A stretch of 64,000 bases of DNA from Escherichia coli (GTDB lineage Bacteria > Pseudomonadota > Gammaproteobacteria > Enterobacterales > Enterobacteriaceae), in assembly GCA_902500125.1 (NCBI GenBank), contig GCA_902500125.1_4132.1; one strand, given 5' to 3'. The notes under the pieces were generated by a model. That model ran no database searches. It had not been told where the DNA came from and saw nothing but the letters and a program-made list of their open reading frames with translations. Positions 1 to 64,000 of the stretch are shown in pieces. Each line of letters starts with the position of its first letter. Position 1 is the first letter of the stretch. Both the position numbers and the translations under genes were made by a program.

Positions 1-168
1 GGTTATAAGAAAGAAGTACAGAAGATTGATGTATTTGTTCGTGCATTAAGTCCAACACATGCACTATTTAAATTGTTTGATGAAGTAACTAAGTACAACA
101 CACCAAAAACACAACGCTATATTGAAACAGTACATAGTGTAATACTCACTGAATATGATGGAGAATGA
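1..168 (+). CDS. 3' end of ORF continuing upstream of window (hypothetical)
   Basis: Open frame from window edge to TGA at 166-168. Confidence 0.3.
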   Translation, partial: GYKKEVQKIDVFVRALSPTHALFKLFDEVTKYNTPKTQRYIETVHSVILTEYDGE

Positions 169-171
169 CAA

Positions 172-390
172 ATGAATTTATATCTAGTTGAAGGGTCAGT
201 ACAAGTATCCAAGCAAGACGGAGAAGGGTATCGTTTTTCACATGTAGAATATTTTAAGTACGTAGTAAAGGCCGATGGTCAGTACGACGCAGAAATTCAG
301 GTTGAAGAATCATTCCGTAAGAAGAATGATATTGGTAAATTTGAATACCAAGACTTACAATTCACTGTATGGCCTAGCATTAATGACTAA
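172..390 (+). CDS. hypothetical protein (72 aa)
   Basis: Track ORF; ATG 4 nt after upstream stop. Confidence 0.5.
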   Translation: MNLYLVEGSVQVSKQDGEGYRFSHVEYFKYVVKADGQYDAEIQVEESFRKKNDIGKFEYQDLQFTVWPSIND

Positions 391-391
391 G

Positions 392-595
392 ATGTGGTGG
401 TGTCATGGTGTCTACAATGTCTATGAATATGGTAGATTCAAAATGAGCAGCACCTATGCCAGACGTGTTAATGCGAAAAACCAAGTTGATGCTGCTTGTG
501 AGATTGTAGAGTGGTATGCAGAGTTCAATGCAATTGATTTTATGTACGAAATAGTTACAATAAATGTTGTACAAATTGACACGTCTTTGATATAA
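392..595 (+). CDS. hypothetical protein (about 67 aa)
   Basis: In-frame ATG just after previous stop inside track ORF 275..595. Confidence 0.4.
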   Translation: MWWCHGVYNVYEYGRFKMSSTYARRVNAKNQVDAACEIVEWYAEFNAIDFMYEIVTINVVQIDTSLI

Positions 596-629
596 TAACT
601 GTATCAAAACAACCGCAACTGAGGATACT

Positions 630-1292
630 ATGTTAGTTAATCTTAATTTCATCACTTCTCCTGATTGGGCATTGCGTGGTGTTTCTTTGAACTTTAAAGA
701 AACTAATTTCGACTACATTGGTGATTGTACTTTAGTTAATGCTACATTTGATCCTCATCATCCTTTTTGGGCTGAAATTCATGATCCTAATGTAAACAAT
801 AGTACATCTGTTATGACTATTGTACAGACGAAACATACAGGTATCCTCGCAGGTTACAGACCAGGACATGCGATTGAACACTTCACTGATTATGATGTAG
901 TAGATGAGTATCCAATGATCCATGAAGATGGAAGTTTATACACGTCAGAAGACTTCCGTGCTATCTTTAATAGTACTGATGACATTCTACCAAGTGGTCG
1001 TCCACGCCCTGAGTCTTATCTTATGCACTCGTCTTATGGTGTAGCAGATACGCTTGAACAGATTTTGACGAAGTACAAGAACCTTATTGAAGGTCCTGAA
1101 GAAATTGTCATGTGCTATCATCCAGTACTGAAGTCTGACCAACCAGAGAGTGGTGGGTGGCGTTGGCATAAGAATGGTGAGTACATCGGTACTAAGCGTA
1201 GTAAAGAACGCTTTGAGTACTTGTATGATGAGCCAGATGTTGAGGTTGTTTTATGTTATAATTTTCTTAAGGTGAAAAAGAAATGTATCTAG
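630..1292 (+). CDS. hypothetical protein (220 aa)
   Basis: Track ORF; GAGGA RBS upstream. Confidence 0.6.
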   Translation: MLVNLNFITSPDWALRGVSLNFKETNFDYIGDCTLVNATFDPHHPFWAEIHDPNVNNSTSVMTIVQTKHTGILAGYRPGHAIEHFTDYDVVDEYPMIHEDGSLYTSEDFRAIFNSTDDILPSGRPRPESYLMHSSYGVADTLEQILTKYKNLIEGPEEIVMCYHPVLKSDQPESGGWRWHKNGEYIGTKRSKERFEYLYDEPDVEVVLCYNFLKVKKKCI

Positions 1293-1525
1293 TATTGAGT
1301 TTTGTAGTTGCATTATTGTTTATGTTCTACCCTACACTAGTAGCAGTAGCCACTAAACGAAAGCTGGTGGATATCACTACTGTATTCTTGCTAAACGTGG
1401 CACTCGTTCTAGTGTCTATTATCATTCCCGTGAGCTTTACGGTTATTGATATTATTTCGGTATTACTCTTCGTGTTAAGTTATCTTATGCTTATTGAAGA
1501 AACAAATGTTGACAAACGTTCGTAG
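1283..1525 (+). CDS. small membrane protein
   Basis: Track ORF; two hydrophobic segments; overlaps upstream stop. Confidence 0.5.
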   Translation: MYLVLSFVVALLFMFYPTLVAVATKRKLVDITTVFLLNVALVLVSIIIPVSFTVIDIISVLLFVLSYLMLIEETNVDKRS

Positions 1526-1582
1526 TACTGTATAATGGTTCCTGTAGTCTGAAACTTAACACTTAAACTTGAGGTAAAAAAT

Positions 1583-61540: not shown

Positions 61541-62085
61541 ATGAGATAGATTTATTAGCACACAAGATAAGTACAATAATGCTTATCCTCAATAACAACC
61601 ATCCTATATCGCAGATAGATGGAATCCTGAGTCAGAGGACAGGTGGTAGTTTATATTTGTCCATAAACGCAGATATCGCAAGGAAATACATTGATATTGA
61701 TGTTGAAATCGAATATGATACAACGGGGATTGTTGATGTAGGAGCATTAATCAGTTCAAATCCAGTATCAGCATCCCCATTGACCAAAGATGTTAGTACA
61801 GGATTCGAAGGATATTTGTGGTACAATACCAATGATGATTATTTTATATATCAGCATTCCAATACAAATTATGATGAAGACAAATTTCAGTTCATAGACC
61901 CTTATGATGAAGCTGAAGTATTTCAAAAATCATTAATCACAAAACCGCATGAGATGATGTATCTAATGTTATTCAGTACAATGCATTTGAATCCATTAAT
62001 TAAAGGTTTAAAATTTTATATTCAATTAAATTTAGTCCATGTAGTTTATGATTTATTAATGCAAGGATATAGTTATGAAGTATAA
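61537..62085 (+). CDS. family C paralog
   Basis: Track ORF; DEAEVFQKSLIT. Confidence 0.55.
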   Translation: MNEIDLLAHKISTIMLILNNNHPISQIDGILSQRTGGSLYLSINADIARKYIDIDVEIEYDTTGIVDVGALISSNPVSASPLTKDVSTGFEGYLWYNTNDDYFIYQHSNTNYDEDKFQFIDPYDEAEVFQKSLITKPHEMMYLMLFSTMHLNPLIKGLKFYIQLNLVHVVYDLLMQGYSYEV

Positions 62086-62386
62086 AATGATGTATACCCC
62101 AGATATGATTTATGTTGAATTAGAAGATGATGACGATGGGTGGAATTTGATTTATTCAAGAAGTTCAGGTTGGTACATGGCACATTTAAATGATTCGATA
62201 GTTACAGATTATTTTGTAGATTTCAATACATTATCCGATGAAGAATTGTTCCAACAGCAATTAGTGATTGACACGGGTGGTTATGATGTCTTATTATTAA
62301 AAAAGATACAAAAAGCTGTTATTGATTTTAAGCCCATGATATGGCAAAGGAAATATTATGACCTCGAAGTACCATACCAGCAATGA
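62075..62386 (+). CDS. family C paralog
   Basis: Track ORF; SDEELFQQQLVID. Confidence 0.55.
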   Translation: MKYKMMYTPDMIYVELEDDDDGWNLIYSRSSGWYMAHLNDSIVTDYFVDFNTLSDEELFQQQLVIDTGGYDVLLLKKIQKAVIDFKPMIWQRKYYDLEVPYQQ

Positions 62387-62924
62387 AATTCAGTACACCT
62401 ACGCTAATGCAATCCTTATGGGACAAAAGTTAGCTTGTATTGTTGCAGCCTTATATAATGCCCAGAAATATCACAAGCGTCATTTCCACAAATGTATTGG
62501 TATTATTCCATCGAAGTACAATACATATATTGCGTGCACGAGTCATTTTGATAAACGATTCAATACACCTGATACCCCAAATGCCAGTAGTGTTATTGGT
62601 CTTTTGGATTTCGCACCTGGTGCTGTTATTGGAAAGAATGATTTAGAGTACACATGGTATAATAAAAATGCCCCGTTAGTAATGGGAAAATATGATACAG
62701 AAACGAATAAAACAATAGAGTACAATACATATAAATCAGAGGAAGAATTTTTCCAAGGTTCATTGCTTGTACCAGTGCGTTTGTTGTTTTATAATGTCCT
62801 TATTAGTACAGTACACAATAGTCCATTACACAAGAATCACAAAATTAATTTCAATTTTTGTGCTTATGCGATTGATGGTGTGTATGAGTGTTTAATGGAG
62901 GTATTGAGTTATGAAGCTGAATAA
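62358..62924 (+). CDS. family C paralog
   Basis: Track ORF; SEEEFFQGSLLVP. Confidence 0.55.
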   Translation: MTSKYHTSNEIQYTYANAILMGQKLACIVAALYNAQKYHKRHFHKCIGIIPSKYNTYIACTSHFDKRFNTPDTPNASSVIGLLDFAPGAVIGKNDLEYTWYNKNAPLVMGKYDTETNKTIEYNTYKSEEEFFQGSLLVPVRLLFYNVLISTVHNSPLHKNHKINFNFCAYAIDGVYECLMEVLSYEAE

Positions 62925-63252
62925 TACATTTGATATTAATAAGTTAAGAGAATGGTTTTATAGTATTGAAATTGAAGCCATCCCGTATCATAGATATGAA
63001 CAATATAATTTAACCAGTATTGATATCCGTGAGTTGTACGCGTATTATCAAAGTGCATTAGAGATGCATAAGTTATTTTTGAGTACAGATTTTGTTATAA
63101 ATTACAATTTTGAGGAATTTAATAATTATAATTTAGTACAGAAATATGTAGTAGCAAAGTACATGTACCTTCAAGGAATTACAAGTAATTTGGAATTCAA
63201 TACAGTCCTGGCTTTAGTTGAGGTAATTTTATGCAGTACATGTATGATTTAG
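62911..63252 (+). CDS. hypothetical protein (113 aa)
   Basis: Track ORF. Confidence 0.5.
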   Translation: MKLNNTFDINKLREWFYSIEIEAIPYHRYEQYNLTSIDIRELYAYYQSALEMHKLFLSTDFVINYNFEEFNNYNLVQKYVVAKYMYLQGITSNLEFNTVLALVEVILCSTCMI

Positions 63253-63737
63253 AGTTTAGTTTAGATGCTGCCTTTAAATTTGTTCACAAGATAGAAACAA
63301 TATACAGTACATTATGTGCAATACAATCAGTATCATCTGAGTTTGATGTTGGTGAAAAATATCAGGTATGGAATAATACATTTCTAAACAAAGAACGTTG
63401 CTCTACGGGGTTTAATATTTTAACATTTAATCCCAGCAATTGTTACCCAGAGAAGCATGAACGTTATCCGAATGACGACATGTGGTTTGATTACACAAAA
63501 GATGGTGATATGTCATCCCTTGTAGTTCCTGATGATTTTAATGCCGAAGATTTAACGAAAGAGTGGTGGTTTCAACAGAATTTAGTACACGATGATATTG
63601 ATTTATTTTTTTATGTAGTATTTAAAATGCTTTACCACAACAATATATTAAAAGATAGTGTGTTTTTTTCATGTCTATATATTGATGATTTGTACAATGA
63701 AATCCAAATCAACATGCCCAGAACGCCTGTATCGTAA
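63231..63737 (+). CDS. family C-like paralog
   Basis: Track ORF; TKEWWFQQNLVHDD. Confidence 0.5.
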   Translation: MQYMYDLEFSLDAAFKFVHKIETIYSTLCAIQSVSSEFDVGEKYQVWNNTFLNKERCSTGFNILTFNPSNCYPEKHERYPNDDMWFDYTKDGDMSSLVVPDDFNAEDLTKEWWFQQNLVHDDIDLFFYVVFKMLYHNNILKDSVFFSCLYIDDLYNEIQINMPRTPVS

Positions 63738-63762
63738 GATATGGGCTTTTTTCGTTTTGGTA

Positions 63763-63791
63763 TTGACAAAGAAGTGCAAAGCTGTTATCAT
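63763..63791 (+). promoter_or_regulatory. sigma70-like promoter
   Basis: TTGACA-N17-TATCAT. Confidence 0.45.
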
Positions 63792-63819
63792 GTGTAATCA
63801 TTTTAAAGGAGAACATATA

Positions 63820-64000
63820 GTGAGTTTCATAATCCCAAGTACATACGAAGATGCATCAAGTGCAGTGTATAAGGTTCATTATATTTTTAATTTAATTATT
63901 AGTGCATCAAAAAATAAAATGTATGCACCTCTTGTGAAATATGATAAAAATGAGGAAATTTTTGTTAGCACAGAACAAACGATTTTTCCATATTTCAAAG
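63820..64000 (+). CDS. 5' end of ORF continuing past window (GTG start)
   Basis: AAAGGAGA RBS then GTG; open frame to window edge. Confidence 0.35.
   Translation, partial: MSFIIPSTYEDASSAVYKVHYIFNLIISASKNKMYAPLVKYDKNEEIFVSTEQTIFPYFK

Follow-up and report, generated by a model that had tools for sequence, protein, structure and literature searches.

AGTACT, an exact palindromic hexamer iterated along the genomes of Rak2-like jumbo coliphages, as a candidate recognition word

The 64,000-nt stretch of DNA analysed here (contig GCA_902500125.1_4132.1; the window is this whole stretch) contains 278 copies of the palindromic hexamer AGTACT, against a mean of 20.8 in dinucleotide-preserving shuffles (standard deviation 4.8, maximum 31; none of 100 shuffles reached 278). 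Megablast placed the whole window in Asteriusvirus at 93-97% identity, and the source is, judging from this match, an Asteriusvirus of the 121Q/PBECO4/SP27/G17 type, a Rak2-like jumbo coliphage of about 350 kb. The genome has a G+C content of about 35%, and its genes are mostly small hypothetical open reading frames (ORFs) on the + strand, and paralogues with RCC1 repeats form a block on the - strand at 18-28 kb of the window. Sites, ORFs, promoters and islands are given in window coordinates unless 121Q is named; the entire 121Q genome (348.5 kb) was retrieved for genome-wide counts. Tentatively, AGTACT is read here as a selected "highly iterated palindrome" of Rak2-like Enterobacterales jumbo phages that is recognized by a sequence-specific factor, a reading that we favour while giving it somewhat less than an even chance. 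No report of AGTACT in these phages was found in the literature searched.

An earlier note, made from the letters of this DNA, had claimed that AGTACT is far more frequent than base composition predicts. This was true and understated, and the shuffles reject chance or base composition as the source of the excess. The excess also stood against Markov models, which predicted 21 copies at order 1, 103 at order 3 and 227 at maximal order, the last value being so high because the motif itself raises the counts of its sub-words AGTAC and GTACT. AGTACT was the top-ranked hexamer of the window, and the words at ranks 2 and 3, GTACTG and CAGTAC, overlap it.

1-64000, no strand assigned: AGTACT, consensus hAGTACTd, usually CAGTACTG; 278 copies, of which 174 are wholly coding, 102 non-coding and 2 across a boundary

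The extended form CAGTACTG alone occurred 65 times against 0.9 expected. In the 121Q genome there were 903 copies against 100 expected, and AGTACT was again the top-ranked hexamer, with a density of about 2 per kb throughout, late structural genes included, and a peak at 130-155 kb. The excess is confined to the exact word: the 18 one-mismatch neighbours of AGTACT in 121Q were at only 0.6-2.2 times expectation, against 9 times for AGTACT itself. The flanks of the sites in the window were symmetric, with C at -1 in 47% and G at +6 in 49%, while G at -1 and C at +6 were disfavoured and positions farther out showed no conservation. This flank preference was alike in coding and non-coding sites.

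Counts in samples from other phages, taken around the capsid gene for GAP32, 7t3 and XaC1, were as follows.

Cronobacter phage GAP32, around the capsid gene: 82 AGTACT against 12 expected
Salmonella phage 7t3, around the capsid gene: 62 against 11.8 expected
XaC1, around the capsid gene: 121 against 16.5 expected
Serratia phage BF, 50 kb of replication and structural genes: 112 against 13.9 expected
Salicola phage SCTP-2: 20 against 8.2 expected
Pseudomonas phage MIJ3, PA5oct group, sampled region: 0 against 9.5 expected
Coliphage phi92, unrelated, 35 kb sampled: 0 against 10.9 expected

The enrichment was thus 5.2-8.1-fold in GAP32, 7t3, XaC1 and Serratia BF, and 2.4-fold in SCTP-2. Serratia BF prefers A at -1 (AAGTAC 93, TAGTAC 56, CAGTAC 44) and not C; the conserved unit is the hexamer AGTACT, not its flank. 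The host differs sharply from the phage: a 50-kb sample of E. coli K-12 held 3 copies (about 0.06 per kb), so that AGTACT is 40-150 times denser in the phage DNA than in that sample.

Individual sites are conserved above background and yet turn over between genera. Between the window and 121Q (93.4% identity), 87.4% of AGTACT sites were kept, compared with 73.8% of hexamers of the same composition, and gains (37) and losses (29) were balanced (66 in 51 kb at 6.6% divergence). At about 74% identity, 26-35% of the sites stayed in place against 16-19% of controls, with density maintained. Conservation of this kind has been taken as evidence of selection for sites of HIP1, the highly iterated palindrome GCGATCGC of cyanobacteria (PMC5861425), and AGTACT behaves alike.

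The excess is a property of the DNA word and not of the protein. The ORFs of the window held 175 copies of AGTACT, against 24.0 when codon order was shuffled and 53.5 (maximum 74) when synonymous codons were shuffled within genes, and the coding copies were spread over the three reading frames (72/42/60). Ser-Thr dipeptides were in excess (138 against 78 expected), 72 of the 138 being encoded as AGT-ACT, and Val-Leu and Gln-Tyr dipeptides were likewise in excess. It is because the word is found in all three frames, and distorts both codon and dipeptide use, that the excess is placed at the level of DNA; codon or peptide bias as its cause was ruled out by the codon shuffles and the frame counts. 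In 121Q, 742 of the 903 sites (82%) lay within ORFs, density was 1.9-3.1 per kb across all gene-length classes, and the profile of AGTACT around start and stop codons, examined for a positional preference, was flat. The stress that had been laid on promoters and terminators was therefore misplaced. When the promoter and terminator repeats were masked the excess survived, as the coding-only counts show (175 against 24.0-53.5), and the promoter-poor stretch 1-27900 carried 81 copies against 9.5 expected. The density of AGTACT in non-coding sequence of the window is nevertheless about three times that in coding sequence.

AGT is the most-used serine codon of the window (388 of 1186), largely owing to AGTACT. 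The 121Q genome encodes a tRNA-Ser with anticodon ACU (L002 25464-25555), which reads AGU and hence the opening codon of AGT-ACT, and also a tRNA-Thr with anticodon UGU. The tRNA set of the phage may be adapted to AGTACT, and the tRNA-Ser(ACU) suggests a long residence of the word in these genomes, which we count in favour of a selected palindrome.

Promoters carry the word in an ordered way. Among 38 strong + strand sigma-70-type promoters at 27.9-53.1 kb, 28 have an AGTACT starting 6-32 nt upstream of the -10 hexamer, where the local density predicts 6.7. The registers relative to the -10 hexamer were fixed, with 11 copies at -27 (AAAGTACTTGCAA), 17 at -7/-8 (AGTACTGTATAAT or AGTACTGGCATAAT) and 4 at -17/-18 (TTGACAGTACT), which bears out the description of AGTACT as lying beside -35 and -10 boxes. 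Its presence in the stems of minus-strand terminators was confirmed as well: five hairpins each consist of a stem with GCCAGTAC or CCAGTAC, a short loop, the complementary arm and a run of T, and their predicted folding energies are -12.4 to -15.0 kcal/mol. The 2-kb non-coding island, for which about 20 copies had been reported where fewer than one was expected, held 22 against 0.7. Searches of this island for a tRNA or known RNA families found none.

34138-34170, + strand: promoter type 1, AAAGTACTTGCAA, 16-nt spacer, TATAAT; AGTACT abuts and overlaps the -35 box (register -27); family D1
37287-37319, + strand: two AGTACT in one promoter, at 37287 and 37307, flanking the -35 box and abutting the -10 box, AGTACTTGCAATTAGTTTTCAGTACTGTATAAT
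43331-43365, + strand: promoter type 2, AGTACTATTGACATAGTTTGATAGTACTGTATAAT, a perfect TTGACA-16-TATAAT; paralogues at 40180 and 40474, a related copy at 50980
21054-21072, - strand: intrinsic terminator, stem GCCAGTAC, loop, GTACTGGC, then a run of T
17389-17410, 24616-24634, 25427-25445 and 26623-26642, - strand: four further terminator hairpins
32115-34168, no strand assigned: non-coding island, 22 AGTACT against 0.7 expected, with 12-bp palindromes TTCAGTACTGAA
33949-34120, + strand: tandem 53-bp repeats, each with TTCAGTACTGAATAATAGTACT (two AGTACT per unit); family D3

Such an arrangement could suggest that AGTACT is mainly an early-region operator or promoter-terminator block whose count has been inflated by cassettes similar to those of T4-type phages. 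The 28 promoters and five terminators that carry the word speak for this, as do the paralogous families that the promoters form and the threefold higher density outside genes. The T4-type elements, called PeSL (promoter early stem-loop) and said to have been described by Arbiol et al. in 2010, are reportedly long repeated cassettes confined to plastic regions. The early region of the present phage resembles them in its many small early ORFs, each with its own strong sigma-70 promoter and hairpin and falling into paralogous families; AGTACT differs from what is said of PeSL in being a 6-mer that lies mostly inside unrelated genes all along the genome. Inflation by cassettes is very unlikely, given that 174 of the 278 sites in the window and the large majority in 121Q are within ORFs, that the late structural region has 88 copies against 14 expected, and that replication and structural genes of other genera show the same excess. 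Counts restricted to coding sequence, together with late-region counts from five lineages, ruled out promoter and terminator repeats as a sufficient cause.

Density is highest, at 7-10 per kb, in and just before an inferred terminal repeat. Its edges were mapped by homology to the annotation of OQ718158.1 (vB_Ec-M-J), which gives a repeat_region at 1-21525; the boundaries align to positions 32398 and 53090 of the window, and the ends of the BF17 record agree.

27901-32397, + strand: small-ORF array just ahead of the repeat, 38 AGTACT against 2.9 expected (8.5 per kb)
32398-53090, no strand assigned: terminal-repeat equivalent with early host-takeover genes and strong sigma-70 promoters, 142 AGTACT against 6.2 expected (6.9 per kb)

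The physical left end of the genome is predicted from this alignment at about 32398, inside the non-coding island, and the window assembly seems to have the terminal repeat collapsed or internal. The right repeat edge at 53090 coincides exactly with the start of a region without AGTACT.

This region is the first of two islands from which the word is absent, separated by a spacer in which it is abundant.

53091-57868, no strand assigned: AGTACT-free island 1, 0 copies, beginning at the right repeat edge; contains 19 members of a 24-member family of ORFs of about 70 aa
57869-60307, no strand assigned: AGTACT-rich spacer between the islands, 17 copies against 1.1 expected
60308-64000, + strand: AGTACT-free island 2, running past the end of the window (7.6 kb in 121Q); AGTACT 0, TGTACT 0, GTACT 0

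The equivalents in 121Q are at 155502-159569 and 161800-169384, and all other gaps between AGTACT sites in that genome are at most 2.1 kb. Phage A4 keeps the two-gap layout, although an island-2 protein is only 44% identical there. The islands showed no DNA similarity to phi92, from which they are thus not derived, and appear from the sequence comparison to be specific to Asteriusvirus. Island 1 largely coincides with a tandem array of 24 paralogous ORFs of about 70 aa with overlapping stop and start codons (53188-59075), a family without a Pfam match; the last five members, which lie outside the island, do carry AGTACT, while the other 19 do not.

In place of the palindrome, each island carries a one-base variant in one orientation. 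The ORFs of island 2 are unrelated, and AGTACA occurs in it 23 times where 1.7 copies are expected, always on the + strand and in all three frames (10/7/5); T does not follow any of its 32 GTACs. The corresponding counts of AGTACA are 41 in 121Q and 46 in A4 (with TGTACT 0 in the A4 gap), and GTACT is missing among 63 and 75 GTACs, respectively. These sites were conserved: 20 of 23 were kept relative to 121Q (all-hexamer controls 77%), and 9 of 13 and 11 of 14 relative to A4 (controls 47-48%). Island 1 shows the reverse orientation, with TGTACT and AGTACA at 10 and 1 in the window, 6 and 0 in 121Q, and 9 and 1 in A4. The opposite polarity of the two islands is thus strict in three genomes, with island 1 confounded by paralogy: its TGTACT copies are mostly at a homologous offset within the paralogues, and common descent accounts for much of its polarity. 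A purely structural motif, which the earlier note had offered as one possibility, cannot account for the strand-oriented AGTACA island.

The islands lend support to a different explanation, in which 5'-AGTAC(T/A)-3' is read on a single strand as a signal for the replication or recombination machinery, for example helicase-primase starts or fork direction. The palindrome would then write the signal on both strands of a bidirectionally replicated genome, and the islands would mark a fixed origin or polar landmark, with an origin between them at 57.9-60.3 kb, about 25-28 kb from the left end and just past the terminal repeat; we regard both the strand-read signal and this view of the islands as unlikely. 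The two arrays point away from the spacer, which is the lagging-strand-template geometry flanking a bidirectional origin, and the gaps of at most 2.1 kb outside the islands are on the scale of Okazaki fragments. The primases of T4 and T7 start at GT-containing sites; known phage primases, however, read 3-5 nt and not six. Such a signal would also leave unexplained why the opposite orientation has to be absent, and the polarity of island 1 may be inherited, since its TGTACT is mostly one homologous position of a tandem family. GC skew followed transcription and gene orientation and gave no sign of an origin, and outside the islands the non-palindromic 5-mer was enriched merely 1.5-2.1-fold. If true, a strand-read signal would amount to a "self" code, written in sequence, for the DNA metabolism of an unmodified jumbo phage.

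The islands bear as well on the proposal that AGTACT is a neutral by-product, in which biased mismatch repair or gene conversion during frequent phage recombination turns near-sites into AGTACT, as already proposed for HIP1 (PMC4390886). Such a process would give a sharp specificity, an apparent conservation, the highest density where constraint is low, and turnover between genera, all of which fit what was found. A uniform mutational drive would not leave AGTACT-free islands, though, and the two islands, made up of small accessory ORFs, stay free of the word in three genomes that differ by about 6-15% in DNA where alignable, unlike the remaining sequence with its 66 gains and losses; one island moreover holds a selected variant word, AGTACA. 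No neighbour was strongly depleted (the lowest, AGGACT and AGTCCT, were at 0.6 times expectation and the others at 1.0 or more), and changes at AGTACT sites were spread over all six positions. We therefore consider biased repair quite improbable.

The claim that the excess is the opposite of restriction-site avoidance proved well founded, as the genome is otherwise extreme in its lack of palindromes. In 121Q, 24 of the 64 six-base palindromes are absent, almost every one of these 24 having at least four G/C, and GCGC is missing both from the window (50 expected) and from the 348.5 kb of 121Q (178 expected). GTGCAC, CACGTG, ACGCGT and AACGTT are spared from this avoidance, while GGTACC and CGTACG are absent. 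Restriction avoidance resembles the present case in that unrelated phages had no AGTACT in the regions sampled, in addition to the palindrome avoidance of the same genome. It differs, as does the evasion of EcoP15I by T7 through single-orientation sites, in that AGTACT is enriched, and enrichment cannot be evasion.

The 121Q genome encodes a C5 methylase (PF00145, gp91) and a Dam-like N6A methylase (PF05869, gp417), both conserved in the clade, which raises the possibility that AGTACT is the target of a phage methyltransferase. It would then be maintained by methylation-linked repair, as in the HIP1 model of Elhai, or serve as an epigenetic self-mark or as protection from ScaI-type enzymes. 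In cyanobacteria each highly iterated palindrome has a cognate methylase (PMC4390886). Specificity as sharp as that for this hexamer is methylase-like, and the complete absence of AGTACT from the phi92 and MIJ3 samples (about 10 expected in each) suggests an AGTACT-specific restriction to which 903 bare sites would be a risk. The C5 enzyme fits poorly, however. The C5 methylase is probably CpG-directed, as bisulfite data for RaK2 report CpG methylation (PMC3622015) and the palindromes spared from avoidance are of the ACGT type, whereas AGTACT contains no CpG. Its phi92 homologue is 51% identical, and phi92 has no AGTACT in the 35 kb sampled; on this ground and on the RaK2 bisulfite data gp91 was rejected as the link. 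The family of the Dam-like gp417 is spread very widely among phages, with members in T1-like, Stx-converting and Sf6 phages; the small methylase of phi92 is no relative of gp417. The absence of GGTACC and CGTACG excludes a general protection of GTAC. A signature of m5C deamination was absent, with no excess of C>T or G>A among the gains and losses at sites, and no neighbouring word was depleted as CTAG is in E. coli. A methylase target is thus an explanation that we hold to be improbable.

A host reader is suggested by SlmA, the nucleoid-occlusion factor, whose 12-bp site GTGAGTACTCAC has a central six bases identical to AGTACT (PMC3020112), so that the phage could hijack SlmA to block cell division. 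The phages sampled that were strongly enriched have enterobacterial hosts, with XaC1 in addition, and no enrichment was seen where the host is Pseudomonas. SlmA requires G at position 1, T at position 2 and a purine at the third (PMC3020112), yet GT stood at positions 1-2 in only 37 of the 903 sites of 121Q, GTNAGTACTNAC occurred twice in 121Q and not in the window, GAGTACTC occurred 3 times, and G at -1 is disfavoured where C is preferred. With the required flanks missing or disfavoured, hijacking of SlmA is rejected as extremely unlikely. An operator for a transcription factor was rejected on the 82% coding sites, the neighbours at no more than 2.2 times expectation and the lack of information beyond -1/+6. 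A LexA box (CTGT-N8-ACAG) was also considered; AGTACTGTATAAT has one half-site, and by eye the partner is missing at the right distance.

The idea that AGTACT is a recognition site is strengthened by the exactness of the hexamer, its symmetric flanks and its conserved sites; no binding or modifying protein was identified to complete it. Under the selected-palindrome reading, selection would keep an exact 6-bp duplex word at about 2-3 per kb along a chromosome of about 350 kb, and a factor would read it with the precision of a restriction enzyme and act all along the phage DNA. This factor would probably be encoded by the phage and would probably bind duplex DNA as a symmetric dimer. The word would be packed wherever sequence is unconstrained, in promoter spacers, at the upstream edge of -35 boxes, in terminator stems and in intergenic DNA. 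The same factor may occupy the flanks of the -35 and -10 boxes of most early promoters, probably modulating them, for example in the shut-off of early transcription. Because AGTACT is so much denser in phage DNA than in host DNA, the contrast could let some phage process target "self". That process would need at least one step that senses strand or direction, given that in a conserved 7-kb island the palindrome gives way to AGTACA in a single orientation.

Several observations weigh against this reading. The close relatives MIJ3/PA5oct manage without AGTACT. The gaps between sites are near Poisson (coefficient of variation 0.86-0.92), and no regular array is required by such spacing. The fixed promoter registers are partly inherited, because the promoters form paralogous cassette families. 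A symmetric reader of duplex DNA does not explain the one-strand AGTACA of island 2. Specificity for an exact hexamer is unusual for a transcription factor and more typical of methylases and nucleases, and a Pfam scan of 150 window ORFs and 10 larger ones found no DNA-binding domain; the matches in the window were RCC1-like, GNAT, DksA/TraR, ParE-like, HNH and similar.

Among known systems, AGTACT is closest in kind to HIP1, from which it differs in being viral and in having a polar variant. Each is a short exact palindrome in many-fold genome-wide excess, present in coding sequence in all frames and in non-coding sequence (PMC5861425, PMC4390886), conserved above background and kept across a clade (for AGTACT with 5-9-fold enrichment), and for both there are two competing models, selection and methylase-linked repair. 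AGTACT is 6 bp and AT-rich, in contrast to the cellular, 8-bp, GC-rich HIP1, its excess is 9-13-fold against 15-300-fold, and no cognate methylase was found for it. HIP1 is reported by Xu et al. (2018) to have a large-scale periodic distribution; for AGTACT the gap statistics are the near-Poisson values given above. AGTACT differs further in its peak in the terminal repeat, in its fixed promoter registers and in the islands with a strand-oriented one-base variant. The DNA uptake sequences (DUS) of Neisseria and uptake signal sequences (USS) of Haemophilus are likewise abundant short words in genes that often form terminator stems as inverted pairs, as GCCAGTAC...GTACTGGC does here, but they are 10-12 bp long, non-palindromic and read by the competence machinery, and a lytic phage has no uptake step. 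AGTACA in island 2 and TGTACT in island 1 recall Chi (GCTGGTGG) and the FtsK-orienting polar sequences (KOPS, GGGNAGGG) in being asymmetric, dense, in a single orientation and diverging from a point; AGTACT itself is palindromic and without polarity, and the polar form is limited to about 12 kb.

With some 900 copies, the word has altered the codon use, the dipeptides and possibly the tRNA complement of a 350-kb virus, and it has lasted through several genera; a pressure of that size implies a strong and so far undescribed function. We know of no base hypermodification in these phages, nor are they known to us to build a phage nucleus, and the density of AGTACT would be a plausible means of discriminating self from host in such a phage. 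In cyanobacteria, what highly iterated palindromes do has been a standing question for about 30 years, and a fast, recodable phage, in which the word-free islands and the one-strand variant serve as natural controls, could make it directly testable. AGTACT is also a simple signature for this clade in metagenomes, and its density predicts that ScaI-type enzymes will either cut these genomes to pieces or bring a protection system to light.

Other repeated elements were seen in the same sequence. Ten + strand copies of E. coli Chi, GCTGGTGG, lie in unrelated contexts in the 20.7-kb repeat equivalent (32988, 39553, 43575, 44085, 45036, 45935, 48022, 49921, 51500 and 51722), with two on the reverse strand (32976 and 39491), and across the 121Q genome 18 + strand copies were counted where 1.5 were expected. 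The + orientation is the one that, in the right-hand copy of the repeat, would confront RecBCD coming in at the right end, and the Chi sites in the terminal repeat suggest protection of the genome end. The non-coding island has degenerate short tandem repeats (GGCTAGAT, GGATGGCT and GACGGCTAAAC) at 33160-33330, less than 1 kb from the predicted genome end. The leader downstream of the early promoters is conserved, with GTTTTACATC followed by a short GC-rich hairpin (GAGAGCGGGAACACTTCCCGC or GGGGAG...), for example at 34171-34207 and 34631-34667, and gave no match in Rfam.

Records of phages labelled as Campylobacter phages (for example MG065645.1, A145) match the coliphage early region at 80-90%, and A145 also has a phi92-like methylase; these records look like Phapecoctavirus-type coliphages, and the host label is doubtful. 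A further hairpin, AAAGGGATTGACTCCGGTCAGTCCCTTT or GGTTGACTTCGGTCAGCC, is repeated at 42463-42494, 45847-45882, 48854-48889 and 51607-51642, and also at 3306, 6547, 7307, 9155 and 14067. Its stem holds a TTGACT -35 box with TATTAT or TATAAT 17 nt farther on, which makes the element a terminator and a promoter at once.

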